Shown here: in pieces, positions 20,901 to 45,226 of the stretch
How the letters are laid out: every line of letters begins with the position of its first letter
How positions within the stretch are numbered: position 1 is the stretch's first letter
Assembly: GCA_040954595.2 (NCBI GenBank)
Contig: CM082578.2
Coordinates: forward strand, 835,740 to 899,739
DNA: 64,000 bases
Direction: 5' to 3'
Source: Balanoglossus misakiensis
Taxonomy: Eukaryota > Animalia > Hemichordata
The notes under the pieces: model-generated
The model's database searches: none
The model's input: the letters and a program-made list of their open reading frames with translations, nothing else
What the model was told of the DNA's origin: nothing
Program-made: the position numbers and the translations under genes

Positions 20901-23900
20901 GGAAGTAGGCAACCACCCGAAATGGATGTCTTACAAGTACAAACACAACAACCAAAGGTGAACTTCTACGTTGTAAGTACTTCAGTTACTTCAAAGGTCA
21001 GCTGAGGGTATCCAAAAATTGGGCCAAAAATTAGGATTCTTATTTGGTTCATATTCAAGACAACGGAAAATCCTCGCTGTTTGGGTTTGTCAAATTAGAT
21101 ATGGCCATAATAATGAGTTACGCAAGTAAGTTACAGGTAGCCCCTAAAATTTAGCATTTCATGACGCAGAGGGTCCTACCCTACCCCTCCAAACACCTGG
21201 CTATACATGATGTGCATGCTAACATATGGAAAGCAGGTCAATGGACACCTGATGTCACCCAAAAATTTGACAAAAATGTTCATTCCTGTTTATGTCATGT
21301 GCAAGAAATCCTACATTTGCAGCCCTTTCACTTAGCCTACCATTAGGTATGCACGTAATACATGAATCAAGCAGGTGTCGCAGGTATCCGCCTGTATTTG
21401 GCATTTCATGATAGTTTCGCTCGGAATACCAAAGCTGCACTTGTACAACGGGCTGAGATATGGCACTGTACGACAGAGGTCATCCAAATCAACTTATACA
21501 TTTGGGCAAAAACAAACTGACACTTACATTCGTCCCTGTGGAACAAAAACCACACCTATTGCCCTGTTGGTTAGGCTGCATTCACAAACACCTCTGGAGG
21601 GGGGTGGGCAGGAGAATTGAGGGGGGGATTTGAAAAAATTTAGGGTATGTAAGGGGGGGATTTGAAATAATTTTGGGACTGTAAAGGGGGGGGGCTTGAA
21701 AACTTTGAGGACTAAATATTTATTTTGAGTCCACAAAAATGCAGTTTTGAACCCTTCATAATACAACATTTTCTAATGTGGGAGGGGAACACCCCCTCCC
21801 ACACCCACCCCCGTCATTCATCAGCACCTTTAAATCATTGACTGTTTTATCTAGTGTCCCAGGTCAGGGGACTTGCCCCCACCCCATGATAACTTTGAGC
21901 AGCGACGGTTAAATTTGTCCTCCCCAACATACCGGTAGTTGAGTTAATTTGCTTTTGCCGGGTTCATTAAAATGCAGTTGTGAACTCTGTATTTTATAAA
22001 ATTTTCGTACGTGGGAGGGGGACACCCCCTCCCAAACCCACCCCCTTCACTTCTCGATTTACAATGTCTCCCAACACAGAATACTAAGTTAAAAAAAATA
22101 GAAACAATTATGTTCAGTTTTAATACCCACTGATAAGGGGAAACATCAGTTTCAAATTCTTTTCATGAGAGCGCTGTTTTTCTTTTTTACAAGATAGATA
22201 GGTGATGTGTTTTGCTGTGTGAAAGAAAATTGGGGGGGGGGGGGGATTTGAAAATTTTAGCAGTTCGGAAGGGGGGGATTTGAAAATATTTCGGGTTGTT
22301 GAGGGGGGCATGTGAAAATTAACGGTAAAAAAAATTGAATTCTCCTGCCCCCCCCTCCAGAGGTGTTTGTGAATGCAGCCTTAGTGTCCAATTAAATGTA
22401 CAAAATCAATGACTTAGGCAGGTGCAACAGGTGACCCCGCCTTTGGTATATCTTTATGGTCCCATCCCTATATGCCCCCCCCCCCCACGCCAAAGCTGCA
22501 TGCATCTGCTGTGGATGCTCACTAAGCAAAAGTAGGTGAAATGTCACATAAGATCGCCCATAAGGCTGCATTCACAAACACCTCTTGAGGGGGGGGGGAG
22601 AATTCAATTTGTTTTACCGCTAATTTTCACATGCCCCCCGTACACAACCCGAAAAATTTCAAATCCCCCCCTTCCGAACTGCCAAAATTTTGAAATCCCC
22701 CCTCCCCATTTTCTTTCACAGAGCAAAACACATCACCTAGTATCTATCTTGTAAAAAAAGAAAAACAGCGCTCCCATTTTTTAAGTATTTGTATCCTGTG
22801 TTGGGAGACATTGTAAACCGAGAATTGAAGGGGGTGGGTTTGGGAGGGGGTGCACGTAAGAAAATTTTATAAAATACAGAGCTCAAAGCTGCATTTAATT
22901 AGAAAATTTTGTAAAATAAAGGGCGCGAAACTGCATTTTTGTGGACTCAAAATAAATATTTAGTCGTCAAAGTTTTCAAGTCCCCGCCCTTTCAGTCCCA
23001 AAATTATTTCAAATCCCCGCCTCAATTCTCCTGCCCCCCCCCCCCTCCTGAGGTGTTTGTGAATGCAGCCTAACTTGACAGGAAAATCGGACTTCATATT
23101 GATCCATTTGCAACAAATACCACACTAGCATCCCTTTCATTGACCCCACAATTACGCATGCACATAATTGAGTTACGCAGGTGTCACAGGTGACCCCCGA
23201 ATCGGGCGTATTATTTTGGTCCCATACAGCTGCATGAAGCTGCGTGCCATTACGGGCGATCTGATAACCCCCACGGCCACCTGCGGGCCAACCCCCATAC
23301 TGAACGTTCAGTTGCAACGTCACGACTGAAGTAGGAACTGTTGAACGGCAAAGAAGCCTGATCTCTGATTATTGCTGGTACCATACTCCCTTCGTGCAAG
23401 AAAATCATTGGTCTGCTGCCGCAATACATTGAATGTTAACCAGTGCAGGTATTTAAGGGTGTCGAAAAGACAAGAGTGAGGGGCCAAAGTGCGGGACACG
23501 CACAGTGCAATAAATGGCACTCTGCGGGAATTCACGCACAATGCAATATATTCGACTCTGCGGGAATACGCACACTGCACAAGATGTGGGAGGACCCTTG
23601 GCTTTGATTACATTTGAATTTCGAGGAGTTCGATCGTGTTTTTGACAACGTCCGACGACATTCGGGCGAATGATCGGGCGATCAACCACCCACGATCGAC
23701 ATTTTCTACTTTCATGTTGCATTTCGAGGAGGTCGATCGTGTTTTTGACGATGTCCGACGACATTCGGTCGTTGAAAATAATAAATGATCGGGCGATCAA
23801 CCACCCACAATCGACATTTTCTACTGTCCTGATGTTGCATTCGTAAGTGGTAAACCCAATGACCAACAGAGCAAGGTCCGTTCCCTGCGTGTCGGATCAC

Positions 23901-26900
23901 ATCCCATCGCGCAACAATTTCGCTGGAGACTGTCGCTGCACTCACGCCATATGCACATCTTTGCGTTCTAATTCGAGCGGGAAGTGAGTTATCCCGTCTA
24001 TGCTTGTTCCGGAAAACCCGTGTTATGACGTCAAGGTCATTCATTGATACAAGATCGCACTGTTGACGTGCGACGCGTTTGCAAATCAAAATCCACGCAA
24101 ACGATTTTCCGGGCAGGACTATGACATGTTCACAGGATGAATGCACTGCAAAAAACGTGATGTCTGCAGAGCATGTATGTGCCATCACCCATATGACAGG
24201 CTGCAGCTTCATGAACACGAGCTAGAAACAAAGGCCATGCGTATGTACGTGTGCACGTTCCGTGTCTTCTCCTTGCTATATGCATTCGCGTTCCGAAAAC
24301 ACACGGTAAAACTCATCAAAATGTGTTGTTATTTTATATGCGATGTCTGTACAGTGTGCACGCAATTTTCGCCTTTTATGTGCCAAATAAACTATTGAAA
24401 CTACTGTTGTCATGCTCTTGTCTTGGTATTTTTCTTCTTCTTGGCATCGCTATTAAACCTCTCTTGTACATATACGTTCAATTTTAGAGATAACGTGTAG
24501 GCCCCCTCAAAGAAAGCCGGTTGCCCCCTCAAAGAAAGCCGGTGTTGCTAGTTTGGCATTTGTTGCTAGTATTCTGAATATCTCCCCTGTGACAGCACAA
24601 GTCCACGAGCACCTGTGGTCCGAGGTCTGGGACCGTCGATTTTAAGTGTGTTAAAAGTAAAGCAAACTTAACCTCAAAACTGAATATTTTCCCTATACTT
24701 GAACATGCATAATTACAATAGAATAAATTAAAATAAAGGCTAAATGAAATCAGATCTTTAAACCAAATAGTGTTTTGAATAGAGCAATTACTACTCTATA
24801 TCATATATAAAAGACAAAACAAATACATTAAAAAAAATTTTCCAAGTGTCCAAAAAAATTATTCTTTTGTTTTTATACATGTTAAGTCTATGGGCATTAT
24901 TTCAGTCTATTTTGCAACAACATTTGGAATACTTAATGGCGTCCAATCTCAAAAGTGTAAACTTTTTTATATTCTAGAACATCTCATGATGGTTTCTGGA
25001 AAGTTTCATCTTTGAAATGCTTAAAATAAAAAAATAATCTTAAAAAAGCAAAGTGTATATTAAAAAAAGCTAATTTACAGCTAATTTACAGAAGTTTGCT
25101 TTTTGGTCAAAAAAGTGCTTTTATGTTAAAATATTTAAATGTAACTTTTGTCAAGAGTTTATAGATAGACACTCTACTTGTGTACCAAATTTCGAGGTCA
25201 AAGGTCAAAGGATAATGAAATCCGACATAGGTAAACCAACAACTATAAGCAATGGCGAAGTTGACCTTGACCTTCGAATTTCAAAATTTTTTCACCACAC
25301 CACATTAAAACAACTTATTATCAATCTATCCTGTAATTTTCAGTGGTTTCCAACTATATTAAGGGGGTGACACCGCGTACCCTAAAAAGTATGTTTTTTT
25401 CAATAGGTTTTTCCGCAATAACTTTTCAAGGTCAAGTTCAAAGTTGGTCAAATTTTAGTATGTTATAAAACTCGCCGAGACCTTTCTGAAAATATATAGT
25501 TTGTTATGGTTTATGTAAAATTTAAAAGTACCTACCAAGAAATCCGTCCATGCACAATTTGGACTTGCCGTCTGGAGCAACTTGCATATACCCACCAAGG
25601 CATTTTTTTGGCCTTTCTAAAAATGTTTTTTTTTAAAGGCTGGGGTTAGACAGGGGACCAAAATCAATAACAACAACCTAAAAGATAACAAAATAAATCC
25701 AAACAATTTTTTCTAACCCTCTTTTTTTGGCCAAACAAGACATAAGTTGGGCATTGGGGGACTCGACCTTAAAAAACATGGAAGGGTTGACTTGTTTTTG
25801 TTGATATTTTTTGTTGTTGTTGTTTACATGTTTACCTACATTGTATCAAAAGGAGGGGTAAAAAAAACATTGGCAAGGCAGTAGGGTTAGAGCCCGAAAT
25901 CTCAGGTCCCCTAATGCCCGTTGGACCCTAATTAGGGTTAGGGTTAGGGTTAGGGGGTTTAAGATCACATACTGGTACATGTGTATGTTTTGTGAGTTGT
26001 GTGATGTATTTTGTAGTACAAGGGATGTCAATACATCCATACAGGAGTGCCTATATGAGCGCAAGTCTCTTTTCAGGATTTCTCTGTAACACTTCAAATT
26101 TTTGACATTATCGGTGTCATCCTTGCACAAAAATTAATGACCCTCCCCTTGACAAGTGCCCAAAACGTAGCGGCCGTCCCCCAAACCGTTGCATGAGAAA
26201 TGGTGACCCTCCCCCCAATCGCACCGGCCCTCCCCCCTTGTTAATTCTGACCAGGCCCTTACCGCGCGGCCGATGCCTCCCCTAAGTTGGCAGTAGTTTC
26301 GACTAGAATTTCCACTGCAAACCAAAACATGGTTCATGCACGCAAACTTATGTAAGAGTAAAAGCTCGGGTCATCAGTAACATGTGTCTGAAATATTGCA
26401 TTTTCTTGTGTGAAAGTTTTGCCATCCAACGTGCATGTAAGGCTGTGCATGAATGTACATTGTACTGCACTGTAAACTTGGACATTGCATTACCGCAAGG
26501 ATTTAATTTCATTCCACCAACAAATCAGGGCCATGGGCAGATATTCACCCATTTAGGCCGAAACCATCACTTTTAGCTTTCAATAGTTAACATGACTTTA
26601 GTTGGGGTCTTAATCGGCAACGGGGCTGAAATCGGCAGCTTTACCTGCCGATCTTATCCCTTAGAAGCCATGGTTTGTTTGTCAAGGCATGCGCGGGGAC
26701 GTATTCGGCATGGTGCCGAATTCGGCACAACACCGGGACTAAAATAAAATGTTTGCTGATAAAAATGTTAATGGTGTTGCATCATTTTGTCGTTCATCCT
26801 GGAGTGACTGTGATCCTGTCAATCATATTGCGACAATTATTTTTTTCAAGGTTGTACCAATAAAAACCTAACATATCCAATAGTGTTTGTCGTTTATTTA

Positions 26901-29737
26901 TTATCTTATTTGGGGTGCCCCCGATGCCTGCACATGTACATACTTCGTACTGTATTACGTTCGCTTCTGCTTTTAATCTCGTTTGAAATGCCGTTTTCTT
27001 CGTGTATACGTTTGCATTTGTGCCTAATCTTGAAATGTTTTTGGGCTCACGTGATAAAACCGCGATTATTTGACCCTTTTTGTGAGATTTTTATTATGTG
27101 TTGTATTCTTTGGGTTCATTGTGTTTTACTGATAAGGGTTTTCCTTCATGTCTACGTGATGCTAAGATGCTCTATGTGAATCGGTCTGGGCGGGGTTCAT
27201 CGGTACGCTCATTTTGCGCAAGGCAATCTGCGCCACTCAACTAATATTTCTCTATGAACTGGTTGACATGTAGGATGAGTCGGTAGAAGGGAAAATAAAC
27301 TTATAAGACCGTTTCATTTTATAAGCAGTCTCATTTAGAATGATGTCCCATCGGATGCAATACTTATGCTAAAAGTATACCTACTGGCACAGAAATTTAA
27401 GTTCAACTAAGACTTCATCGTCACATTCGACCGAGTTAAAACATAAATAATCACTGTGGACAAATACTGTGGAAGTTATATCTCACGGTGGTATTTCCTC
27501 CCGAGTAGAATGGTTAAAAGCACTAATAGCTCGATAATCGGAGTGAGAAAAACGAACAACATTTACACCTGTTTTCAGTTATTGCCTTGTTCGTTTTATC
27601 ACAGACAATTTGACTACTAGTATTTTTCTGTGGTTTTATTCCATGAGAGTAGCGTGTTGACTGAAGAACTTGTGGAGATCATTATTGCCTACATTTGTGA
27701 ACTCTGTTATAGCGCTCAACAGAAACAAATTTTAAAACCTTGTTGACTGACATCTTAGTTGACAACCTTTTGCTTTCCCAAGTTGTAGGCCTACTCCATA
27801 TATGATATTCATTTTGCAGTTTTTTCTCGAACAACTTCCTACCGATAAGGTCGTCACCCGGTGACCAGCACACAGACTTGTACACCGTAACGCCATTCAA
27901 GGCCGTGATGTCGGGCGAGACTTAAAGTTATCAGAAATTGATTAAGTTCGTGGTTACAACAACTCACACATATTCATAATTATAGGCCAATGTACCGAAA
28001 TATCGTACGTTCGTTCAGTGCAGCACTCAAATGATATAGTTTTATAATAGGTCTGGTATGTTAGTCTTGCCAGTTCGCGTTCTTATTGCCGAAAGTTGGG
28101 TCATTTAGCTCGCTATCATCAACGGTGTAGTATGGTAATGTGGTGATAGGACGACGATGTAATAAGGGGTCAAAGGTGGAAGATCCTCGGAATCTGACGA
28201 AAGATGGGTGAGGGACGATCGTTTAGGGTAGCCTCGATTTCGTTGAGGACCGTCTGTAGCTCATCAACAGACACGAAGCGTCGACCTAGAACTTTTCTGT
28301 GAGATATTTTAGTGGGGAGCGCGTTTTGGTATAAAACACCATTCTACGCGGCAATTTGCATACAATTAGTGTTAAACACACCTGTTCTCGCACGTTTAGT
28401 ACAGGGTAAAGGTCACTTGCCCGTCGGACAAAAGACTTTTATTTTTCACTTGTCCGGGCTGTCCGATCTTCTCTATGTCATGATGCAGTTCCCAAAGAAG
28501 TACCAAAGGCAACAGTGGCAGTCACTGACTGCACACTTTGACAAATTTCACACGAAAACACAGATTAAAGCTGCAGTTGTTGCAACGTTTTTCGATCCCG
28601 TCACCAAGAAACGGATTTTTGTCATCCATGGCACCCAGCCACTTGCCAGAACCCTTGAAGCAAACGTTTCAACATTTCTGACTGTACCAGCGCATCCTAG
28701 TGATGATAATGATCAACAACCCCCAGAAAGCGTACTGCCAGATCTAAGAAACCACCATAAGAAGAAGCTCTCTTCGTTCACTTACTATGATGTAAGAGAA
28801 CTTTTACCAGCATTGGTAAAATGCACCACAAATCGTGCCCAACCTTTGTGGGACAGACCAGACATGAAGCCAGTATGGTGGCCAGCCGAAACACCGTACT
28901 GCAACCCCAGTCGGCCCGGTAAAGTGGTTGCTTCAACGTCTTCGTGGGTCACGCGCATGAAAGACGTTGCTAAGTCATGTTACCAGTATTATGGACAGGT
29001 CGAGTTGACAGGTACGTACCATTTAAACGGTTATTTAATTAGAATGGTGAAAGTTTGCTAGACATTACTCCTGAGAATGTATAGATTCAGCAATAAACAA
29101 AATCATCCGTTTTACACGAGCTATACATTCTTTTGAGATGAAGGCCTTGAAAACGAACATCGACTGACAAAGTTTAATTAACCACAGTACCGAAAATGAC
29201 GTTTTTTTTGTTAAAAGTGGTTTTTAATTTTGTTCAGCTGGTCTCTTGGTAAGTACTTCTCTGCAAAACAGTGAGAATATTTTGGCTTACTAAACTTGTT
29301 CTCACTTTTTCACAGGCGATGATGAAGACAGTAGGCCTACTGATTGTCCGACTGGTGAGGGTGCAGCGGTTACCCGAGACCCACAACTTGAAAGCGATAT
29401 TGCCCAATTTTTCTCAGGCAATAATGAAGTCAGTAGGCCAACTGATTGTCCGACTGGTGAGGGTGCAACCCAATATCCACAACCTGAAAACGATATTGCT
29501 GGGCATTCTATTATAGGTAAGCGTGTCTTTTATTGCAACTATAATGTAGATCGTGAAGAGTCATAGTCTACAAGGTAAATGTTTTTAGCCTTGACTGTAA
29601 AAAAGAAAATGTAAAAATCATACACCAGGGTCCAGTACATACATTTTTGTTCTATTCGCATCATACAGTAAAATTATTCGTGCAGATTCAAATTCGAAGT
29701 AAATTCCTCGATATCATCACTTGTTGCGCTTTTCTTG

Positions 29738-29768
<31 letters not shown>

Positions 29769-32700
29769 TGCGATGCATCGTACGTGTCATGTGAGACACT
29801 GTCGGGAGTTTGGACTTGGGTTTGTCGTGTCGAATTCACCTATGTCAAATTTATAAGCCACAGTCCCTCAAGAAAGACGGTCGGGAATCGCCCATTGTTC
29901 GGACGTGCGAATGAGGGGATTAGCTGTAGGATGCGCATTATGGTCACGTGACCACCTTAGAGTTGCGTTTTTTCCCCTTGGAAGCAAGCGGCAGTCGCCC
30001 TACTATCTATGATTTTCCCGATATGTTAGTTATGTTTGTGGAGGAACTGTGTATAAGCCAACTGACATCATTTTGTAGGTTTATATGATTCCGCTGGCAA
30101 TTTTCAGGATCTAATACATTTGAATGCACCATACGATACGTGGCAATTTTATATTGAGTGTGCTCCGAGAAAAGTAACAGCGCAAAAATAGAGGACAGCG
30201 CGACATTGCACATTTATACGATATCGGATATTTATCGTCTAGTATCGTCTAAAACATTAAACTAGACTGTACTTTAACAACAACTTTGCCTGCTTCCCGA
30301 CTATGTCGGACCTCAAAAATATCCGATAGTATCGATACTATCGATACTAGAGTCTAGTATCGTCTAAAACGTTAAAGTAGACTGCACTTTAACAACAACT
30401 TTGCCTGCTTCCCGACTATGTCGGACCTCAAAAATATCCGATAGTATCGATACTATCGATACTAGAGTCTAGTATCGTCTAAAACGTTAAAGTAGACTGC
30501 ACTTTAACAACAACTTTGCCTGCTTCCCGACTATGTCGGACCTCAAAAATATCCGATAGTATCGATACTATCGATACTAGAGTCTAGTATCGTCTAAAAC
30601 GTTAAAGTAGACTGTACTTAAACAACAACTTTCAATACTAGACGATACGTGGTGTACTGACCTCTTGAGCCGTCAGTGTGGATTTTGTGTTTTTAACGTT
30701 TGGCATTTTCAGTCATGTGTATGTGTACATTTACCCAATTTAGTTCTACAATATTTACAAAGGTCATTTTCATCTTTTCTCTATAAAGGCACAAACACAG
30801 AAGTTGGAGCAGTGCTATCATTCATACAGCATGAATCAGATCCTCACTACCTCACACAAGATCTGAGTACAATAAATTTTGAGGATCTTGGTAAGAAATA
30901 TCCCTATTACAATGTATTACTTTCTTTATCACAGTGAAACCTCTCCAAGTTCTATGTTTAACCTCGACCATGTGGTGGAGTGATCGTGATTTAATATGTC
31001 TTAGCAAACTTAAATATACTTAAATATACTTAAACAACAAGCCAACCAACAGGGGAAAACGGGTTGTAACTGGAGAGATACAGACTGAATTTCTTGCTTA
31101 CAATCCTTTAATCAAAACAATCACTCTTTATCTGTCCATTCAGTATTTATCTCTCCTGTTACAAGCAGTTTGTTCCACTCTGGTCAGTTTGATTGCTATC
31201 ATTGTCATTATGAATTTTGCAATTACTTAAGCAATAAAACACCCCCAGCCATGGTATACCACGAGATTTTTGACCAGTTCACGACATATACGCACGAGCG
31301 ATAGCGAGTGCGTATATGGAGTTGAACTGGTCAAAATCGAGTGGTATACCATGGCTGGGGTGTTTTATTGCTATTATATTATGCCAGTATATTGAAACTT
31401 TGCATATAACATTTTAAAAAGGCATTTTCTTTGACTATGATATATGACTGTGGTATATGGCTAATATATCACGGTCACGTGTCGTGTCTCGACCAATCAA
31501 ATAGCGTGATTTACACCATCAATATACGGTATAATATAATAATTATTTAATAATAATGGTGTTAATGATTTTGTATTTGAATACACATAGTCATTTAAAT
31601 GTGACTAGGACAATTATTATAGTTTAACCTTTGTTCAGTGGTTGTTTTATGTACTTCTTGTATGGAGAGAGGGATACCTCAGTGTTAAAAAATACCAAAT
31701 TTTGCTATGTGTCTGTAAAAAGGGGTAAAAGCCATTATGTAGTCAATAGGTTTTTAATTTTTATGTTTTACCTGTGTTCTGATGACTTAAGTAAAACTAT
31801 TGAATAATGTCAACCAATACACTTCTATATTTCATTTTCTTTTCAGGTTCACATCCCATTCACCCATCACCCCAGCCAGCAACTCCATCAGCCAACAGTT
31901 CCATCAACACAAGTGCAGAATTATCACCAGTGTCTTACACACTACCACAGCAACAGCCAGCAGCACAAATCCAACAGCCAGAATCACCACCAGCAGCACA
32001 AATCCAACAGCCAGAATCACCACCAGCAGCACAAATCCAACAGCCAGAATCACCACCAGCAGCACAAATCCAACAGCCAGAATCACCACCAGCAGCACAA
32101 ACCCAACAACCAGCATCACTACCGCCACGCCGCAGTCAACGGTCAGGAAGGAAGACCAGAAAAGTTCAAGATGATGAAGAACTGCAACAAGAGCTGGCAA
32201 CCCTGAAGAAACTCCACCAAATGAAGAAATCAGGGGACCTTCTTGACCTGGTGCTCAGTTGCCCAATTCCCAAAAAAAGCGTCGGACAAACCCATTCCAT
32301 CTAGTGGCCCTAAAAAGACAAAATCCCACTGAGTACAACAGATTATTAACTGCATTTGAAGCATCAGAAGTTAGTGTGAATGTGGTTCTCCAGTTCATGC
32401 ACCAGCACATAAAACAGTTCAAGAACCTGCAAATCGATCATGCAGAACAAGTTTTGGGCTTCATTTGTCAAAAACTCAACTTATGAGTTGATATTTTCAT
32501 TGTCTTTTAACTCTTTTTCCCATTCTTGTCTTTCTGTGTTAATTAATGTACATTTCAAAACGCAGTTATCAATCTGTTGTATTCTGCGGGATTTTGTCTT
32601 TTTAGCTGGGAAAATGGGAATTTGGTCAAAACTCGGTAACTTAATTATTGGTCAGATTGCTTTGCAAAGTGGTGTGTACTTTATTGAGACATCATATAGA

Positions 32701-35700
32701 TTTTTTTGTGGTGATATCATAAAATGACTAATTTTGGTGAATTTTTTATCTTTTTCCCAAAATCTTCTTTTACAAAAAAACTTTTCAAATTCACAACAAA
32801 AATCATTTGAGGGTGTGTAGAGGTTTTTCATTTTTTTTTTTTTTGAATCATGGTAAGAATTCAATAGTATATTTTGGGGTGATTTTTGCCATTTTTGGTC
32901 CAAACTCTCAGAACCCTCTACCCCCATTGCTTTTAAATTTGATTTGCAGGTTACCAGGTGTGTTCTCATAATGATTTACAAAATCTATGATGAAAGTGTC
33001 AATATTTTGTGGGGGCAATATCTTGTATTTATGGTGCATACTTTCCAATTTTGATTTGAAAAAACTATATTTCTCAAAGTGTTGGGCTGATTACAAATGT
33101 ACTTTAGAATTTAAGTTGTGAGTTAATGGGATGGGGTTCTTTAAAATTGTAATGGAATCAAATCGTAGGTATTTCGGAATTTGGCTGTTCTATTTGGTGT
33201 ATGTACAGTACACGTGCCATTAGCAGCTTATGGGTCAGTGTTTGCCCATTGATCTCTCTCTATGTGTGTGTGTGTCTGTCTGTCTATGTACTTCAGTGTA
33301 GACTTTTTCTTGATTAATCCCTAAATGGGACCAGTGTCCTTGACGCTGTTTTTGACAGTTATCTTTGAGTAGTGATTGTTTTTGACAAATATGAACGGTA
33401 TATTAAAATAACACTAAAGTCCACCTCGGGTGTGTGGTGTACTTCTTTATTCAATTTTATATACATGTGTGCCTGTGTAATGATTTGTGCATTTCTTCTT
33501 TATTAACAAGTTTATCGGTGTACGGTAGTTCTCTTTTTTAAGGATGTGGTGGCCCTGAGAAGGGCCGTTTGGTATGTGTATGCAGAGCATACGTCTCTGA
33601 GACGCTAAAAAACTTCCATGAAAACACCTCCGTAGTTGTCCTCTGATGACTGAATTTCTTCTTTAGTACCCTGCGAACACACCTCCTATACATTCCATCT
33701 CCCCATAGATGTATATGGCTGGTCTACATTCTCATTCTGATAACAAAATGGAAATTCGACACGTCAGTAACAAATACAATAAACTGTAAAACACCACTTT
33801 CTCTTATGCATCTTGTTTTGTTTTGTCAGCACAGCAGCAATGTAAAACCATGCAGCAAGAATTTTACTGATACAGATGATAAAGCATCATGTTAAAGTTA
33901 TCTTTTACCGTTTTCATCAGCACAGTTATAAAATCGCATGATTCCAAGCATCTCATGTCTTTGGGAATATGGGTCATCTTGTTACCTCGTGTAACACATC
34001 ATCCATGGATTTGCCCTCTTCATTATGGACAGTTTGTCAGTACTTCTCAAAAACTGAAACAAAATAACAGACAGACTTTATATGACGGCAGTCATGGGGA
34101 GTGACTGTGATGATGGTCTACCGTTCATAAATCTGGAAAAATATAGTTTTTGTTTTCTTGAAGTGTCTAATGCTGCAGTCACACAATCAACTGAAACAGT
34201 CAGAGAATTAATTAATAGTATTCTGTGTAATGTAAGTTGACCACAATGAAAGCAAGAATGGTCCTAAATCAATATAAATCCAGATGGTTTCAGCTATAAC
34301 TCATTTGAAAAAATGTCCGAGCTAGACAGTTAAAGTGCGGTTTTCAGAACAAACAAAAGACCTTATACTTTATATCAGTCATTGCTTTCTGTTCAATTAA
34401 ATAGAAAAATCGGAAAAACAAACTTATCTATTTTAAAACCTTGAACTACAAGTAGTTCAGGTGACTTTTCTTCTTTTGATTCCAGATTGCAAGGAACAGT
34501 CTGACATGGAAGATGAAATTATCTGGGGTCATATAAGATACTTGTGCCTTAATTTTCTGTAATGCTGCATTGCTCTGCTCACAGATCTGGGTATTTATGT
34601 TGGCCAAACTTCTGTTGTCCTTGTACTGTTGCAGGCTATAACCTGATGAACAACTGATCAGTAAAATATAAAAGAAGATTCTTCTGTGAAAATTTTAACA
34701 GTATAAAACATAAACAATTTTTTCAGACAAATTGATATCGTTCCTTAGAAAATTGACACACATGCCCTGAATACATTTCAGATACCTGATTAACAGAGCT
34801 TATGAGCCAGTCAGAAGTTGTAATTTGAGCAAACCTGTTTATGTCACCAGTCCGGGTTATGTCTCTGAGTGGAATAATAGAATTGACCAATCGGTGATTG
34901 CCATTGTGAAATTTGATTTTATCAGAGCAAAATCCTTTCCCTGTCTCCTACCTCCTAACTGACTCCAAATATGATGTGGTTAACTGGTCGTATACTTCTT
35001 AGCTGTTCCAGTCAACTAAGCTCTGCAATTGCCAAACATAGATGATTTGAAAAATATTCTTTTGAGCTTTTTAATCTGATACTCACCCAATGTGGTTTTT
35101 CCAATGGAGACGATCCACTAAGAAAACTGTCTTCATGAAATAGTTTGGTTCTCTGAAGAAAGACAAAAAATCACTTCATTAGTTCTAATCTTTATATTCT
35201 TGCTGAAAGGAGTAAGCAACGTCAATTCATCAAATTCTTGATTTTTTTTTTTGGGGGGGGGGGGGGGTAAAACACAAAATTAACCATATGACAAGCTGAC
35301 ATCTCAATATGAAAAAATTGTAACAAAGTGGCTGCCAGACCACCATCTTGGATCATATCGCAAAAAAAAATGAGTTAAAGGCAAGGGTGGGCAAGCATAA
35401 TTGAGCATAAAATAAAGCTTAGCCACCCTTCTCTTAAGTTTAACAGAAGTGTGGTAATCACATTAACATACAAAACAGTATATCAAGGTTGAAATAAGAC
35501 TTACCGATTTAAACAGTACTGATGCAGCCGACATGCATTGTCATATATGACAATGGCTGGAGGTTGTCTTAGTCTTGTTGTCATAATGTTGAATGGCACT
35601 TCGGGTGACTCCACTTGCCTCATAGCCTGGAAGCCATAGCAGAACCCATGTTGACAGAACACAGTGAAAATGCCAGGTGATAACGTAGGGTGTTTGTTGG

Positions 35701-38700
35701 AGATCTTTTGGCAAGTGTCATCACCATGTGCAAGTCTGTCTTTGTCTTGCCGGTACAGAGGTTTCCTATTAAATGAAAAGTGAAAGCATGATAACTAAGA
35801 GAATGGCAATGGCATGCATAGCACATGGGTACATAAACTTCCATTTTGAATACATATAAACATGTATACAGAAAGGTATGTCTAAGTGGGAAATGAAAAT
35901 TCACAAAAGTAATGAAAATAATGCAAAAAGTGGCAGCTCTAGAGGCTTAAGACAGACTTCAATTAACTTTCAAGTTACAGTGAGATATCCTTACCCATGA
36001 AGCTTTGGTAGGCAAGGGAAGCAAGCTACAGGGTCTTCTATTGGATCTGGATATTGCACAGTACTATCAGGTCCCTGGTTACATACTTTGTATGAGCTCC
36101 TCACTCGTAACAACACATCTCTAAGAAGGCGACGCACTTCTCTTGGGATACCATGAGGATTGTGCCCGAAATGTGACAGCAATTTGAAAATAAGAGGAGC
36201 ATCTTGCTGTACAATTTCAAGTTCCCCTTGATGTCTGCTGTCAAATATATCGAGTCCGTGTATTATTTTCTTGATGACATGTTTAGCCTGTGAATCTGGG
36301 GTCAATTGCAGAAGAGCACTTGCAGGCGAGTTTTTTGACAAATCTTGAAGAAATTGGCAGAACTCCTTTGGGGCTAGCAGATTTCTTCCGTGTCCACTGA
36401 CGAGTTGGAGAAATTCCATAAGCGAATGGAGGTGACTGTACTTTCTCATCAAATTAATCATCACTGTGTACTCAAGGGGTGTAAGTGGTTTCTCAGCTGG
36501 CTTGTTGGTACTACAAAACTGTAATAACAGTTTCCTGACCTTGGCATTTGGTATATACACTCGGTCACAGTGACGTGTACCAATATCCAAAGGCTGGCCT
36601 TGGTCACGTGATGCCCTCTCTGGGTCTGGAAGTTCTTGCAAGAGGCGTTTGTTCAGTCCTACACTCGTACCATCACATATCAGAACAGAAGGCTGCAGCT
36701 CACATATAGGGCATTGGTATACAGTGCCATAATTTATGTCCAATAGCCTTGCAAATGCATTCCAGGCATTCCTAAGTTTGTGGTATTTCAAAGAAACAGA
36801 CTCTGATAACATAGCATGTTTTTCAGAGTAGGCCCTATTTAAGAACAGAAAGAAAGATTAATGTCAGGTGATTGCCAGGAGTGAAAGAAAGTTTATAATG
36901 TTTATCTGTTGTAACATTTTTATACTGTACCTTCTCTGATAAGAGCCCCCAAATTAATGGGGGGTGGGGGTGAAAAGAATACAACCTGGTACATCAAGAA
37001 ATGTGTTTTTGGTGGGCTTCCTAATCACCCTGTAAATTATATCATGGGAAAAATGGCGCTCTTGAGCATGTGACAGGTCTAAACAATTATCGGACTGGTA
37101 AAAGCAACAATGAACTTTTGAAATTTGATGACTGACTATATGGGTAACAGCCTTCCCTAGAGAATATTTAGACAAAAATTTTGCTTACCACCCCTTCGTT
37201 CAAGTATTAATGGGTAATTTCAGTATTGATCTTTCCTTGCTGAGCTACCAAATACATAAGTTCCCTAGTCAATGATTATATTTTTAGAAATACAAAGTAT
37301 ATGTACTTACCTATGGAAAGATGCCAACGGATTTCTGGACTCTACCATCAAATGAAGGTAGGAGAGTAATAAACTGTAGTGAATAATGTCCTTGTTGTTC
37401 AGATTAAACATCAAATCTCCATGCCCATCATAATGCAACCTGCACATACATGGACCAACACTTGGACGATAGTACACTGCAAGGAAAATAATGACTATGT
37501 TAATATAATTACCAATACATGTAGGAGATCATTAGATAAGTGGGATGGAAGTTGCGTGTGGTCGAACGGTGATTCACTATATAGCCATATGTAGAATAAT
37601 ATTCACGGTGTCTTGTATCAATCAAACATTTTAATGGAAAAATGGCAGTGATCCAATGCAACCTTAAACCAATGGTACAGTAAATAAGGTTAACTTACCC
37701 TTGATAGTTTGTTCCTCTCCTTCTACATAAACATGCTGAAGTGAATGTGTCTCATAATACACAATGGCATCTCCAACAAGCCAATGTTGTTGTACAGGGT
37801 CATCAACATCCCATGCATGTCCATGTTGACAGGTAGAATGGGGGCCAGCACTTGGTATCTCGGGAATTAGATTATGCTGTACAGGCTGTTCTCCACTTTG
37901 TTGTTGTTGAAACTTTACCTTCAGAGAGTCATCAAGAGGGTATGAGATTGGCTTAAATGACACGCTTGGGAAAGTACTTTCTTTCAAAGTGCGTTCAGTT
38001 TCTTGAATCTCAACCTCATTTTGTCCATACCATATTCGGTATTCTTCAACATGGTCACATGTGGTTCTACCATATGCGCAGGTCTCACAGCTAAGTTTTT
38101 TACCAACATGTTTGTTCCTCAGAGATATTATATGTGTGTCTTCACCTATGGTAACACTAGTCAGGAACGGATTCAATGACAGGCAATCAACAATGACTGA
38201 TGTGTCTGCAGAGTTGGGGTCCACTTCAACAGGTACATCAGGAAAAAGTTCACTTGCTGCCCAGGCATGAAGACAGTATTTATTTTTTTCAGTTGTGATG
38301 AACTCATCAAAGTTTTCTGGTATCCCACGCTGAGATGAGGATAATCTGGCTGCTTGGATTAACCCATCCTGACATGAACATGTATACAGGAACTCCTGAG
38401 ACGTACTCTGCACACTGTAAAATCGCAGGTTACGTTTGACAATAACGTGCTGTGATATCAACTGCCCAGTCTCAATTTCACAATCTGACAATACATATGT
38501 ATTGCCAGATGATAGCTCCCACTTTCTGTTCTGGGCTTGTAACTGATGCAGGTATTCTTCCCTTGCGTTATTGCCAATTGTACCAACTACTGAAGATATT
38601 CTGAAGAGAAACAAACAAAACTTGGTCACATATAAACATTTATGTTCACTGATTCCTCTAAAAAAGTATCTATTGTTTTGAAAGAGCATATCAATAACTA

Positions 38701-41700
38701 AATAAATTTTCATTGTACTCAACACATATGATACTAATTAAAAAAGCAGATCTGACCTAACCATATTTAAACACAGAAATGTAAAAAGAAATTAACAATA
38801 GGCCAATAAAGTGTCATGTGTGATGGCAATTTTAGAGAGGCAGTGCTAGAGAAATTGATATTTGACTAAAATGATATACAAACCATTACATTACCAGCAG
38901 CTAACCTCCCCCCCCCCCCCATTTTTATCTCAAGTAATGTACACACAAGGCAGATAAGTCCCCCATAAACCTGGCTTCCTATCAGGTGTTTGCTGATAAC
39001 ATGCCAAATTTAAAGTAGGGATACATAACCAAAGTAAGCTGTTGTAAAAATCAGTGAAATTTCCATATTTGTGTTCTTGGGGCAATTTTGGCCGTTTTTG
39101 GTCTTAAATCATTTTTTTCTCTGATTGATTTGAAATTTGGGACTCAATTTTTATAACACATAAATGTTTGTGTACAACTTCTATTAAATCCTGATATCAC
39201 ATTTTTTTGTGCTTTTCTTTGTTAAAAATAAAACTAAAACCCTAGTTAGAAGGCCTAACTCCAGTCTATGGTCTCCAGTCTTGGTGATCGAGTGCCAGAG
39301 ATCAATTCCCCTGCTATGACTGATTACCCTTACAGAGTATTCATTGGCAGGATTTTTTTGGTTTGAAATAAAATAGTAGTTGCTGAAAACACAGGTCTTC
39401 AGGTACTTCCCCCCAGTCGTCCCACAATGCAATGCGGTTTTCAAGATGGCGGTTAATACAGTTTTGCCCTGAGAGAGAAGGGAGGACACGATCACCCCGC
39501 CGGGATAAATCAATCAAACTATTAAAAGAATTAAATTAATGACACCTATCAACGCCTGTTGTCAGACATTTAATGAGCGACTTTCGTACCTGAAAAGGGC
39601 AAATTAATACCGGCCTTTGTCTCCTTCACGATCACATGATACTGCACGCTATGTGTTACAAACAGTGCAACTCTAATATATACTTACTCAAAACGTTGGC
39701 GCTTTACGCTTTTAGCGATCTCCTGGTGTGGCCGCTTCTTTCTTCGCACATTCGATGGATGGGATTCAAAAAATCGACGACGTTGTTTGCGATCCATTCT
39801 CTATTGAAATGTAATCTATAATAACGAAGTACTGCCAAACTATATGCATGACGTAACGCTATTTAAACGTTTCATTTCATATCGTTGAGGGCGCCAAGAG
39901 TCCCGCAGAGTCGAATATATTGCATTGTGCGTGAATTCCCGCAGAGTGCCATTTATTGCACTGTGCGTGTCCCGCACTTTGGCCCCTCACTCTTGTCTTT
40001 TCGACACCCTTAAATACCTCACCAGTGTAGCCAGGTCTAGATAGAAACATTTGAACGGCAACAGCTAACAAACTCAGCGTAATTCAATAAAACGCCCTAA
40101 CACAGCCTGAACTCGGATAATGTGTTATCCCAAAATTCATTCCGTGGAAAATAATCACTGGTCTGTTTACGTATTTCACCCGATTTTCCAAGGACTACGG
40201 CAACCCGCCAGAAGTGAGTAGCCTGCTAATGAGATCTCCACAACATTACGTAATGACGGTCAAAGTCCGATGCCCCAGTGTCCGTCCTCAGCCCACCAAA
40301 AATGCGAAAAATATTACAAAAATCTTCTTCTCAAAATCGACGTAGCCTAGGACCTTGAAATTTGGCACAAAGGATTTTGGCCACATGGTCTACAAAAATC
40401 GCGAAAAGAATGTACATTCCCCCATTAACGTGCAAATTAGGTCAATTTGAAAATTTCGCTCGATTATAGCCACCAAGTCACGTGACTAATTACAAATTCA
40501 AAGGGCAGGTGCACTAGTACTCATGGGCCCCAATCATCGTGCCAAACTTCATAGGCGCAGGTGCCGGAATTTCAGAGAAAAACGGGAGCAAAAAAACGAC
40601 TCAAGAAGAAAGAAGAAAAACTCCAGCAATAACAGAAGGGGACCAAGCGCCTGAGGGCGCTTGGTCCCCTAATAATGGAGTCACCAGGGGAAAGAGATCA
40701 TTATCCATCTTGCAGTGTTTTGGTATGTATAACAGAAGGCAATATCTCCTCCTCGTCCACAGCCATAGCCTAGTATCTAGCCGTATTTTGTCCGCTTTGC
40801 TTCCAAAACTAGCATCTAGCCTCACTCATGCCACTGGCCCGATAAAACCCCATACCCCTTGCCGGGAATTGTGACGTATATATCAAATTATTGTGGTGTG
40901 ATCCAATATGGAAAGAATGACAATTGGAATGTTCATCTCTTTGGTTGAAAAAATAATTTTTCAACAATGATGTCTATTGCAGAGAGGTGCGATGTTGGTC
41001 ACTACTTTGACAACGGGACTTCTCAGTGCCAAAGCTGCCCCATTGGATTCTGGCAATCAGAAGAAGGAAAGTTTGTGTGTAATACTTGCCCAAAGGGAAT
41101 GCTTACATTAGTTGAAGGAGCTACTGATGAGTCACAATGTCAGGGTAGGTACTTGTGTTATTTGCTATTCTTGACTATCAATCACATGATCTGGCCATGT
41201 GACGTACCCATGGCGTTATCATTTGTTAGTGACAGGCAAGCAATATTTCGGCATCCAGTAAACTTTTTTCCGAGTAGGTTTTTACTTTAGAACCGCCAGA
41301 TATGTAACATATTCAACAGTTTAACAAACTCACGTGAGTGAAAAGCAGATAATCGTGAATATCAAAAAATTAATCTTCTCAATTCCAGAGGTATGTAAAT
41401 CAGTGGGAGTCCAACTTAGTGTCAATGGGTCTTGTGAGTCGTGTCCCATGGGAACCTATCGATCAAATGCTGAACTTCAGCCATCTTGTATGCCGTGCCC
41501 ATTTGGCTTCACCACAAGAACAGTCGGTTCAACCTTAAGTGAAGATTGTAATGTTCGTAAGTATTATGTATACAACTTTTCATGTTGTATCTCAACTGTA
41601 CTGAACTGAAGGTTGTATTATTGTGCCTCAGTTGTTCAGAATAATGATAGTCCTCCAATTTTATTCTATGCTCTTTTTCCATTCCATCAACAGCTTACTG

Positions 41701-43967
41701 CAATGTTGGTTGGTACTTGAATCAGGAGTCCTATAGATGTGAGAAATGCCCTGATGGAACATATAACTTTGAATTCAACCAGGATGCTTGTCAACCATGC
41801 CCAACTGGCTACACTACAGGCAGAGAGGGTGCCCTATATGAAACAGAATGTGATGGTAGGAATAATTTTTCATAATCATAGAACTGATAACATGCATTAA
41901 GTGCTTGTGGAGATCAACCTTAACTGTTCAATCTGACACAAACACTTCATTATAAGAACTTTTCTTCTTTATTTAGAGTATCATTTGATATGTTGTGTGA
42001 TCCAATATTTTTATATAATTTAATAATGCTCCTCTTTTAACACCTTTTCTGAAAATTTCACGGAAATAACAATATTGTAATACTGTTTTCTCAGAATTCT
42101 ACATGTTAGGCTATGGAATGTGATAACCATGCACTGCATCTGGGTAGTCATCTAACTTAAAGGTATACAGTCACCTCCAATTTACAAATGCCCATATATG
42201 GCTGAAATGGAGTATATGAGAGTTCTAAAGAACATATGGTGGCGCTCCTTTTTGCATGTGCCACCCACTGAAAATCTGTGATTGGCTAGATCTCCTTTTG
42301 CCATGGTAACTATAGCTAATTTTCCATAGGTGACCGTATACCTTTAACTGGTGATATGTATGAAGATCCCATAGTTTTATTTGGTGGTCAGTTAAAGACA
42401 TTGCAAGAATTTTTGTTTTCTAGATGCACATGAATGTCGTCTTGGTCTGGATGACTGTCACCCAAATGCCACTTGCAGGAATCTTGTACCAGGATATGAA
42501 TGCACTTGCAAAACTGGTTTCACTGGTGATGGAATAACTTGTACAGGTATGTAACTATCTACAACTGAAATGTCAACAGAAATATGCACAGCTAAAACGT
42601 AGACACTACTGTTGATTTTATGCTATTAAAGGGACAAAGTATCTCTCTTGCTGCCCTTTTTCCATTAATTATGTTTGATACAAGACACTGTTTTGTTATT
42701 CACCCGGTACATGTGGATATATAGTGAATCAACGTTCGACAGCACACAACTTCCATTCCGTTTGTAAGAAATCAATCTACAAGTGGGTTTAGTTCTTGTC
42801 TAATACAAATGGTTCGTCAGGTAGAATAATGTGATGTGATTTTATTCTTGTGTCTAGACAAATGTGAAGGGTTCTGCTCAAACAATGCTGTTTGCATCAA
42901 GGACAGTGATGGCAATCCTGTTTGTAAATGTACTGATGAATATCAAGGTGAAACTTGCCGCCAGAGAATACCAATGCAAGTTAAAGGTGTGTATACATTT
43001 CTTTGTCTTTAAATAACTCAAGAATAAAATACAATATTCACTAAAGTTTACACATTTGTTTGATCTACATGATTACAGTTTACGTTGTCTTGAAAATATT
43101 TGTGAAAATGGTGAAACTGCAACATCTGCAGTATAACTAGATTTTTGGTCTACTAACCATTTTACAATAGTTAAGCATCATAATGAATGGTTTTCTTGCT
43201 TTTATCATAGCATATCGCCCCCGTGACAAATAGAAATATTTAAACTCTTACAGATTCCTCCGTTGACACAGCTGTCATCATTGGTGGTGTTGCGGGAGGT
43301 TTAGCGGCTGTGTTAGTGCTTGGTGTAATAATGTTACTCATGTACCAACGGTAAGTTATTTAGTACTACCAGAGTAGAATATAGACAGCTGTAGAAATGT
43401 TGCCCATCAGAAAACTGGGAATTTACCTGTATCTTTCCATACATGCATGAGGCAACGTGAAAAATAATCACATCTGTATCGTGGAAGCAAATTTATTCAA
43501 AGAGTTCATGCATAGACCTATTCGCGTATAGGGTAACTGCAGTGCATCATGGTATAATTTGCGTTCAACATGCATGGCGGCTAACAAGGCAAAGTCACGC
43601 GACCAGACCGCAAAGTGTCCAACAACCACCTGCGTTATTCTACAGTAGTAACCACATCACAACAAATCCCACATTGATGATGTTCAACTATTTGACATTC
43701 AGGTGTGCTCTTGGAGGAAAGAAACATCCAGGCTGGGAAGAACAAGAGGCAACTATGGATATCCATTGGTTTGATGATACAGATGATGTTGATAGCAAGG
43801 CAGGGGAAAGTGTGGAAGATGAGGAAGCCTTCAGAGAAATCTATCACTACAATCCCATGTATAGTGGCGACAGTGGTAGTGCCAGTGGAAGTGAGGAATG
43901 GAGACCAAGGCCTCTTAAGAGTAGAAATGAACTATTTCATGAGAGTCACGGAGACAGATACTTCTAA
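14945..43967 (+). CDS. Uninflatable/SVEP1-like type I membrane protein, 3' part; one exon disrupted by insertion
   Basis: GT-AG exons in consistent phase: 14945-15145, 15549-15832 (LamG/pentraxin, EGF-like), 16568-16708, 17413-17508 (HYR), 18503-18703 (CCP), 19107-19359 (RRKR site), 19928-20076, 20671-20780 + 40671-40722, 40983-41144, 41389-41556, 41694-41855 (GCC2_GCC3 repeats), 42424-42546, 42858-42986 (EGF), 43254-43350 (TM), 43703-43967 (acidic tail, NPMY, stop). Confidence 0.88.
16178..16270. repeat. (CAT/CAC)n microsatellite, intronic
   Basis: Trinucleotide run between host exons. Confidence 0.95.
17604..17798. mobile_element. Small TA-flanked MITE
   Basis: tactgtaaaacgg...ccgttttacagta termini; related copy at about 19648-19860. 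Confidence 0.6.
20114..20198. mobile_element. piggyBac-like mini MITE
   Basis: TTAA-ccctttcac...gtgaaagga-TTAA. Confidence 0.55.
21574..22380. mobile_element. PIF/Harbinger-type MITE
   Basis: TIR ggctgcattcacaaacacctctggagggggg, TTA duplicated on both sides. Confidence 0.85.
22564..23070. mobile_element. PIF/Harbinger-type MITE, same family, opposite orientation, internally deleted
   Basis: Same TIR, TAA target duplication; interior is the reverse complement of the 21574-22380 copy. Confidence 0.85.
23447..23565 (+). repeat. Left TIR (119 bp)
   Basis: Reverse complement of 39901-40019 with no mismatch seen. Confidence 0.95.
23625..23845. repeat. Subterminal direct repeat, two ~110-120-bp copies
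   Basis: gatcgtgtttttgac...gatcgggcgatcaaccacccac..tcgacattttctact duplicated. Confidence 0.75.
25931..25955 (+). repeat. (TTAGGG)4 interstitial telomere-like tract
   Basis: ttagggttagggttagggttaggg. Confidence 0.8.
28090..28310 (-). pseudogene. BEL/Pao retrotransposon integrase C-terminal remnant
   Basis: Manual translation RKVLGRRFVSVDELQTVLNEIEATLNDRP / frameshift / LTHLSSDSEDLPPLTP matches the BEL/Pao EL..VL.E.EA.LN.RPL..PLTP motif. Confidence 0.75.
28480..32486 (+). CDS. Transposon-borne protein with NRF1/Ewg/P3A2-like DNA-binding domain; probable frameshift near 32272
   Basis: Exons 28480-29011, 29316-29516, 30789-30890, 31847-32304/32486, all phase-1 GT-AG. RELLPALVKCTTNRAQPLW..KPVWWPAETPY..SWVTRMKDVAKSCYQYYG parallels the NRF1 RAFIPEMLKYSTGRGKPGW..KPIWWPEDIPW..SWTQALRTIVKNCYKQHG as recalled. 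Start codon uncertain. Confidence 0.8.
30233..30647. repeat. 115-bp tandem repeat (~3.5 copies) with internal palindrome, bounded by 13-bp inverted repeats
   Basis: Units at 30241, 30356, 30471, 30586; palindrome gatagtatcgatactatc; ends tatcgtctagtat / atactagacgata. Confidence 0.85.
31227..31542 (-). mobile_element. Non-autonomous Crypton-like hairpin element
   Basis: ~140-bp hairpin (31230-31372) centred on cgagcgatagcgag, followed by ccaatca...ataat; mirrors the ends of the Crypton at 55699-58110. Confidence 0.6.
31956..32112 (+). repeat. 33-bp coding tandem repeat (PAAQIQQPESP), ~4.5 copies
   Basis: cagccagaatcaccaccagcagcacaaatccaa repeated in the last exon of the cargo gene. Confidence 0.92.
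34446..39797 (-). CDS. KDZ (Kyakuja-Dileera-Zisupton)/HMGXB3-like transposase, ~850 aa, 7 exons
   Basis: Exons 39797-39688, 38600-37699, 37476-37311, 36834-35995, 35765-35505, 35152-35087, 34653-34446 (2553 nt, no stop). Motifs: SWIM-like CSC..CLH, CxC..YDG, CPIC..LICDG, FCQHG, ESP, IYDNAC, VDRLHWKNH, NTQICEQ. Confidence 0.9.
39901..40019 (-). repeat. Right TIR (119 bp)
   Basis: Reverse complement of 23447-23565. Confidence 0.95.
42161..42343. mobile_element. Kolobok-like MITE
   Basis: TTAA-aggtatacagtcacct...aggtgaccgtatacct-TTAA. Confidence 0.7.
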
Positions 43968-45226
43968 TGTGCCATCTCTGTGTGTACATGTATGGTATAA
44001 TTCAAATGATAACTAGAATGGTTTTCATTTTGTGAGTTGACACAGTACTGTGATAAGCTTGGTATAATCCCATAAATGATAACAATAATAGTTATGCTTT
44101 GTCAGACGACAGTACTGTGATAAGCGCACATTAAATTGGTTGGAGTGAAACAGATCTTTATTATTACACTCTTAGCAACATCTGAATGAAATGATCATAA
44201 ATAATCATCTTTAAAGTATGTTGGTTATAAGGCTATATATTTTACATATTTTAAAGAATTTTCCTTAAAAATTTGTTATGACTTATTATAAGGTATTGTG
44301 TAATGAGAAAGATATGATAATACGTGAATTCCTAAACAACAACATATTTGTGTTGAATTTGGAGGACAAATTTAACAGTGTACCAATTCAGCTCTCCCTT
44401 TGCATGCTGACTTGCTTCTGTATTCATACAAGGCAGCATTTATCCTTAACTTGATCAGATAGAAGGTCTTTTCATCCAAATGCATAGATTATGAATTATT
44501 TCTCTCAATATATTCAGTGACTACCTCCCGATGATATATATCCTCCTGAATTAGTGCTTCAAATTTTGATATTTTTCTTGATATTTTTCTTTAATTTGAC
44601 TTCAACTGTCACCATTCTCCAAGACTGTAAAAGAAGGGAGATGATGATTAACTATTATCAATTTTTTTGCCCCTTGTACTGTCTTTACAACTGGCCGTAT
44701 AAATCTGATATTTGTTTGGCATGCGAATTTTGGAATATGGATGTGTATGATCACAATTATAAGATCCTCAAAATAAAAGATCCTATCATTTCATTTGGTT
44801 AATAACCAGTTCATAGGTGAATGAAAATATAGTTACTCACTTTGAGACCTGACATGTATATATAATAATTCAAAGTATTTATTCGCATATTTTTATATTA
44901 TTCATGGTGTTATAGATCAATGGAAATTTTTCAAATTAAATTCATGTATATAAAATGTAGCAATGTAATGTCATATGTGAAACCCTTAATCTTGATATTG
45001 TAATTCATTGTAGAATATGATTATATTGTGTTATTCACTCAACTTGTGCATGTATGTTTAAGATTCAAGCAAAATTACTTTTTTATACAAACTGTTCCTT
45101 TTTGTATTGTTCGGTGACAACTCATCAACAATGAAATAAGTTTGGGAAATTTTTGAACAAAGTCATGAAGTATAAGTACTATAAATAAGTTTAATATCTG
45201 TTTGAGTTGTCCTGCCAGAAGTCAAC

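Follow-up and report, generated by a model that had tools for sequence, protein, structure and literature searches.

A two-gene KDZ transposon of the hemichordate Balanoglossus misakiensis with an NRF1-family gene that may encode its own end-binding helper

How do KDZ transposases recognise the ends of their elements, and what do the extra genes carried by these elements do? In the sources cited here, most of the extra open reading frames (ORFs) are described as having unknown function. Here we analyse a stretch of 64,000 nucleotides from the hemichordate Balanoglossus misakiensis (GenBank assembly GCA_040954595.2, contig CM082578.2, positions 835,740 to 899,739 of the forward strand), hereafter the window. 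An earlier note on this DNA, made from the letters alone, had described a transposon at 23446–40020 with two genes, a KDZ transposase and a protein with an NRF1-type DNA-binding domain, and had proposed that the second is a dedicated accessory protein. We read the locus as a KDZ transposon bounded by terminal inverted repeats (TIRs) whose NRF1-family gene likely encodes its own homodimeric DNA-binding helper, acting at motifs in the element ends, and we give this reading a probability of roughly 60%. The KDZ superfamily is known; the NRF1-like second gene is the new part. Since the structure of a host relative of this partner is solved and candidate sites are at hand, the question of end recognition becomes directly testable.

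The element spans 16,575 bp and has the termini CAGGTAT...ATACCTC. Its TIRs, at 23447–23565 (plus strand) and 39901–40019 (minus strand), are 119 nt each and 100% complementary; the outermost base of the element is non-complementary between the ends, with CAGG on the left and CCTC on the right. Of all boundary pairs tested, none gave a longer match than the 7-bp repeat ACCAGTG at 23439–23445 and 40021–40027, and as the best boundary solution this target-site duplication (TSD) sets the element at 23446–40020. An 8-bp TSD for this copy was ruled out by the same test. An empty site supports the boundary: five contigs of run X2 fuse the left flank directly to 40021 with a single ACCAGTG, and their left-flank letters are identical to 23419–23438 at 19 of 20 positions. 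(Runs X1–X3 are one sample, which may be the one that the window came from; X1 and X2 contigs were used for depth and junctions.) Since the flank is a very high-depth, high-copy repeat, these empty sites are probably paralogous, that is, sister copies of the flank repeat. The element is bracketed by a pentraxin exon at 15.5 kb and ephrin-receptor-like cysteine repeats at 41 kb, a domain mix that we take to indicate an SVEP1-like host gene, and it likely sits in an intron between exons of that gene.

The transposase gene lies on the minus strand. Its model has seven exons, GT-AG borders at all six introns, and a stop-free product of 850 aa by predicted splicing. Exon 1 (39688–39797) starts with the ATG at 39797, about 100 bp inside the right TIR, and encodes a basic N-terminus. 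Exon 2 (37699–38600) holds Cys/His clusters and the beginning of the CxC4 region, which continues in exon 3 (37311–37476). Exon 4 (35995–36834) carries the ICDG motif with the predicted catalytic D447 and a helical insert, exon 5 (35505–35765) the KDZ core with the predicted catalytic D748, exon 6 (35087–35152) a VDRLHW motif, and exon 7 (34446–34653) the predicted catalytic E807 and the stop. The model is collinear from end to end with Branchiostoma (lancelet) proteins of 879–881 aa, at 36–38% identity over about 830 aa. A protein search with exon 5 returned 10 matches among 22 candidates, the best being from Ptychodera (72%), Glandiceps and Branchiostoma.

The KDZ profile (PF18758) scores 20.6 bits (E 4e-4) on window exon 5 alone, under its cut-off of 26.6, and is found in all 10 transposase relatives, in three of them above the cut-off. 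The CxC4 Pfam family is found in 4 of the 10 relatives, at or above cut-off in two; this region straddles an intron in the window and was scored via the relatives, whose CxC4 cysteines are retained in the aligned window model. Exon 2 alone has no Pfam match, SWIM included, and its CxC..C.H clusters are SWIM-like by eye. An AlphaFold2 model of one relative was poor, with a predicted local distance difference test (pLDDT) of 41. The ICDG, YDN and EQ motifs are invariant in the window model and in four of four long relatives, so that the DDE triad D447/D748/E807 appears intact, its catalytic role being predicted. KDZ, CxC4 and SWIM together form the canonical Zisupton layout (bioRxiv 10.1101/2024.08.15.608186). 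Judged by these sequence features the transposase is a KDZ protein, probably of the CxC4/Zisupton type, and the intact enzyme of about 850 aa that had been predicted is borne out.

The second gene is convergent with the first. By predicted splicing it has four plus-strand exons, three GT-AG introns and a product of 430 aa. Exon 1 (28480–29011) encodes the dimerisation and DNA-binding domains in 177 aa; predicted exon 2 (29316–29516) is acidic and internally duplicated; predicted exon 3 (30789–30890) carries a short STxN-DL-like motif; and exon 4 (31847–32304), as read here, carries 33-bp Pro/Gln repeats and a basic RRSxR motif. The RRSxR motif is common to five relatives and the exon-3 motif to four of those, and the sharing of both motifs with hemichordate relatives supports the exon model. 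As for the two convergent spliced genes of the earlier note, their open GT-AG exon models and convergent order stand, with the splicing a matter of prediction. Two further observations were made at this gene. In intron 2, a 115-bp unit with many short palindromes is repeated 3.4 times (30237–30632), and a 48-bp inverted repeat (88%; 32310–32357/32558–32605) surrounds the 3' end of the gene, its right arm holding the TIR word TCTGCGGGA.

What kind of protein does this gene encode? Exon 1 matches the Pfam family Nrf1_DNA-bind (PF10491) at E 2e-14 and 54.2 bits, over a cut-off of 23.5, and residues 6–176 of its protein match human NRF1 in PDB 8K4L at E 6e-14. Its AlphaFold2 model (pLDDT 88.8) has 8K4L and 8K3D as top fold matches, and the three fold matches with E <0.001 are all NRF1. 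The NRF1-type DNA-binding domain is thus confirmed. The base-reading residues R206 and N242 of NRF1 are retained as R106 and N142. When two copies of the domain were modelled together, the homodimer score was 0.69 versus 0.12 for the best control, with contact agreement of at least 58%, pLDDT of at least 71 and an interface at residues 4–67, the dimerisation domain. On eukaryotes, 17 of 29 solved dimers but none of 30 single chains come up to the mark used; as a like complex (8K4L) has already been solved, the prediction may have passed through memorisation.

Is the pairing of these two genes peculiar to one copy? A scan of prokaryotic assemblies found two loci, L002 and L003, among 15 candidates, both on a contig of 2.56 Mb assigned to a bacterial metagenome-assembled genome (G001). 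The two are a single segmental duplication, 99% over 13.5 kb. The assembly measures 16 Mb, versus 2–3 Mb for its listed relatives, and holds megabase-scale intron-bearing eukaryotic contigs; from its size and the introns in the L002 genes, it is likely that misbinned animal host DNA, a host contamination, is the source. The L002 element is 5,442 bp long, with ends at 5991 and 11432, an 8-bp TSD and TIR arms (5992–6236/11187–11431) built of 60-bp units. Its termini are CAGGTAT...ATAGCTC, and 18 of the terminal 30 bases on the left and 17 of 30 on the right match those of the window element, the odd terminal asymmetry included. Between its TIR arrays both genes lie within about 4.1 kb, and in both elements the CAGG end is the one nearer the NRF1-like gene. 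The L002 transposase is 47% identical to that of the window over 244 aa and is decayed, with the CxC4 region missing and the 3' end broken. Its NRF1-like gene was recognised with a profile free of L002 sequence (ORF E 2e-10, spliced model E 1e-20), with an hhalign probability of 96%.

The same pair between related TIRs in so distant an element supports the idea of a dedicated accessory protein, and we consider it probable that the NRF1-like gene is a regular gene of this KDZ lineage. Across the 16-Mb assembly, only 2 of 43 scored candidates were NRF1-like matches, both inside the element (here the profile contains L002 sequence); a PF10491 scan of this assembly gave no match, and its controls were likewise blank. 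Elsewhere, the family of the L002 assembly gave 1 of 115 genomes, which is that assembly itself, viral contigs gave 0 of 37 candidates, and metagenomes 1 of 27, a 2.9-kb contig too short to test. The TIRs and flanking repeat claimed for the window hold, with the amendment that 7- and 8-bp TSDs both occur in the lineage. As a separate observation, the shared asymmetric termini (left CAG.., right ..CTC) with TSDs of different length may offer a way into the mechanism of KDZ cleavage.

Both elements carry repeated motifs in their ends. In the window, a 36-bp unit is present in 2.6 copies at 23490–23579 (plus strand), each with TGCG-(5-8)-CGCA, which are candidate protein-binding sites. The TIR contains five TGCG words where about 0.4 are expected, a count reached by 26 of 5000 shuffles, and these words resemble the NRF1 half-site TGCGC minus its last base. 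NRF1 itself tolerates spacers of 0–7 bp at 2–14-fold lower affinity (PMC10810270). The L002 ends carry TTCCA-n4-TGGAA arrays; in L002 the density of dyads was reached by 5 of 300 and 0 of 300 shuffles, values inflated by tandem repeats. Repeated inverted half-site motifs in the ends of both elements suit a homodimer.

How might the two proteins work together? Going by what is known of the family, the transposase would excise and insert the element by a DDE reaction through the predicted residues D447, D748 and E807, leaving 7–8-bp TSDs. The NRF1-like dimer would bind the subterminal repeats, TGCG-n-CGCA in the window and TTCCA-n4-TGGAA in L002. In Harbinger elements, a Myb/SANT protein brings the transposase to the element ends, and the NRF1-like dimer would help in the same way here. 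Whether the protein indeed acts at the TIRs in transposition is, in our estimate, an evenly balanced matter.

Where did the NRF1-like gene come from? A full HMMER protein scan with the NRF1-like protein gave 149 matches, of which 16 score higher to the window protein than to a canonical NRF1; no match turned up among the 600 and the 75 candidates of word-index protein searches that used the exon with the NRF1-like domain. We looked up the origin of 20 relatives: five are from Ptychodera flava, two from Glandiceps talaboti, one from a lacewing, and 12 are unnamed. The seven hemichordate genes are each on a different scaffold, hence dispersed and multicopy, and across many dispersed paralogs both the folded domain and the short motifs are conserved, at 38–48% identity. 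The window protein is about 25% identical to NRF1 and scores 54 bits on PF10491, versus 262–376 for canonical NRF1 proteins. An orthologous host NRF1 would be expected to exceed 260 bits and to hold R206, N242 and R244 together, a combination that the window protein lacks. In quick, unrooted trees, for which 129 of the 149 matches covered the core (34 divergent and 16 of 95 canonical-like rows were used, and P0021 was dropped; a second tree had three long rows removed), the window protein falls in a clade of eight rows apart from canonical NRF1, with SH-aLRT (Shimodaira–Hasegawa-like approximate likelihood ratio test) values of 95–96. This separation argues against a recent capture of host NRF1 as the source of the window gene. 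Judged on sequence, it is a fast-evolving, divergent member of the NRF1 family rather than the orthologous host gene, and the NRF1/Ewg-like label of the earlier note holds at the level of the family.

The relatives also yielded observations of other kinds. Two long proteins, P0123 and P0161, contain both a zf-CXXC domain and an NRF1 domain of divergent type; P0035/P0036/P0113 and P0044/P0077/P0137/P0143 form additional small clades of divergent NRF1-like proteins. A fusion of NRF1-like and transposase domains was found in none of 151 NRF1-like proteins matched against the transposase profile, and KDZ or CxC Pfam families in none of 31 long NRF1-like proteins.

Several results weigh against a dedicated helper that acts at the element ends. 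First, the independent elements examined number two, the window and L002, and they differ: the genes are convergent in the window and divergent (head-to-head) in L002, the L002 NRF1-like protein is only 22% identical to that of the window, its exon 1 scores 14.1 bits on PF10491, under the cut-off, and the gene, placed on a long branch, does not join the window gene in the tree. Low identity, sub-cut-off score and separate branch together make two captures possible. Second, the five other KDZ scraps (30–60 aa) in the L002 assembly all lack an NRF1-like ORF within about 10 kb. Of the seven named hemichordate NRF1-like genes, likewise, none shares a scaffold length with the single transposase retrieved per species, and within that set no adjacent pair was shown. 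Third, the window TIR contains neither a TGCGC half-site nor a full NRF1 site, its dyad density is not significant (reached by 35 of 300 shuffles), and NRF1 R244 is replaced by Ser, with an Arg one place on. Subterminal repeats are, moreover, ordinary binding sites of transposases themselves. Finally, the window copy of the gene may be truncated at its 3' end. An X1 contig across 32100–32678 is one base longer than the window (the gap position is not displayed), and a plus-strand frame of 67 codons (32283–32486), which has no Pfam match, overlaps the stop; together these suggest that the gene may be frameshifted near 32271, in which case that frame could be the true C-terminus.

Which other explanations fit these data? 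The main rival also takes the NRF1-like gene to be a regular gene of the element, making its product a transcriptional or anti-silencing regulator rather than a part of the transposition complex. We think this unlikely; it leads the alternatives because only about 100 bp separate the transposase ATG from the right TIR upstream of it, the TIR motifs being 100–190 bp upstream. Long acidic and Pro/Gln-rich stretches in the protein resemble those of a transcription factor, and the element ends are CpG-rich (observed/expected 1.2–1.3, versus 0.3–0.4 in the transposase exons). However, the motifs are symmetric and present at both ends, and the two L002 genes diverge from a common internal region, with a TIR array at the 3' end of each.

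It is less probable still that the gene is passive cargo, captured from NRF1-derived sources by KDZ elements independently and without benefit to them. KDZ elements often bear extra genes and nested inserts (PMC12730594, PMC12477816), and the window and L002 genes are not resolved as one clade; yet the same type of gene is found on the same side in two elements with homologous termini, and purely passive cargo sits poorly with the conservation of domain and motifs in so many dispersed paralogs. Last, the thought that the gene lies in another element nested in a KDZ copy, or that the TIRs stem from separate adjacent insertions, draws on about 4.9 kb upstream of the NRF1-like gene in which no gene was recognised, and on several small high-copy repeats within the element, but is very improbable: a single TSD encloses everything, X1 contig depth is near equal over both genes (233 versus 200–208), the 25 longest inverted repeats include no separate termini that enclose the gene, and the compact L002 pair between its TIR arrays already makes nesting unlikely. 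Six ORFs of 85–169 aa in the gene-free parts have no Pfam match, so we claim no third gene.

A helper encoded by the element itself would have wider consequences. The pairing links mobile DNA with a conserved animal regulator that is single-copy, whichever way the link runs, and NRF1-like "expansions" in invertebrate annotations may be transposon genes. Taken to its end, the argument would have an old animal KDZ lineage needing an NRF1-fold protein to transpose, the NRF1/Ewg module being a transposon end-binding domain, many divergent invertebrate NRF1-like or Ewg-like genes being transposon genes, and host NRF1 possibly being a domesticated descendant. We hold this joint reading to be unlikely; the trees described above, being unrooted, are compatible with it.

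Has the element moved recently? The earlier note thought so, and four observations suggest it: the identical TIRs, the open transposase frame, one further right-end flank in X2 contigs, which keeps the terminal C, and a non-autonomous deletion derivative of about 540 bp, present in both runs, that joins 23897 to 39934. Contig depth was rejected as a measure of copy number, the flanking host DNA being about 12-fold deeper in X1 than the element (2,700–3,000 versus 200–240). The deeper flank could reflect a multicopy flank or SVEP1-like region, a pooled sample or amplification bias. A further right-end variant in X2 breaks at 39790, and the deeper host-flank contigs cover 40783–44200.

The rest of the window is rich in other repeats and mobile DNA. 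A tyrosine-recombinase gene (DUF3504 plus Phage_integrase), presumably Crypton-like, lies at 55779–57514, and a frameshifted retrotransposon without long terminal repeats (non-LTR), with a reverse transcriptase domain, at 51077–53996. Duplicated segments at about 47.5–51 kb and 59.3–63.2 kb are spaced about 11.8 kb apart, composite tandem units of 1.4 kb fill 5.3–14.4 kb, and palindromic 53-bp units fill 4.0–5.3 kb.

How does this element compare with known systems? Fungi and algae are known to have KDZ elements with several genes (PMC12730594, bioRxiv 10.1101/2024.08.15.608186, PMC12477816), and animals to have multi-exon Zisupton-like elements (PMC9297572). We found no KDZ–NRF1 pairing in the searched literature, in keeping with the earlier note, which knew of no description; subscription papers, supplements and Repbase may bear on this novelty. 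The word NRF1 does not occur in PMC12730594 or PMC12062965. With the Zisupton clade and the Cryptococcus element KDZx1, the window element shares a spliced KDZ transposase, CxC4 (scored on relatives), clusters that look SWIM-like by eye, and a two-ORF layout. Its second gene is NRF1-like, whereas that of KDZx1 encodes an unknown protein, and KDZx1 is without TIRs. Zisupton has TIRs and 8-bp TSDs (PMC12730594); the window element matches it in its TIRs and departs from it in its 7-bp TSD, and L002 agrees in the 8 bp. At 850 aa, the window transposase is shorter than some KDZ transposases of >1300 aa (PMC12477816). Like the Kyakuja TET+ elements (Kojima 2025, PMC12730594), the window element has a 7-bp TSD, a 5' CA start and an accessory gene; unlike them, it has CA..TC termini (a CTC end) and perfect 119-bp TIRs, where Kyakuja elements lack TIRs, are bounded by CA..TG and carry a TET/JBP gene.

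Two likenesses concern the accessory protein. As in PIF/Harbinger, a transposase is accompanied by a separate small gene with a DNA-binding domain of transcription-factor type (PMC12730594), a functional analogy only, as the transposases are unrelated, PIF/Harbinger TSDs are 3 bp, and the partner there is Myb/SANT rather than an NRF1 fold. With NRF1, Erect wing and P3A2 (PF10491; 8K4L, 8K3D; PMC10810270), the window protein shares the dimerisation and DNA-binding domains, the PxWWP motif, the equivalents of R206, W224 and N242, and a predicted homodimer. It differs from NRF1 in its low identity and the loss of R244, in a domain that begins at residue 1 without an N-terminal extension, and in its C-terminus; and, unlike NRF1, the gene belongs to a multicopy, fast-evolving family and lies inside a transposon, as does the L002 gene.

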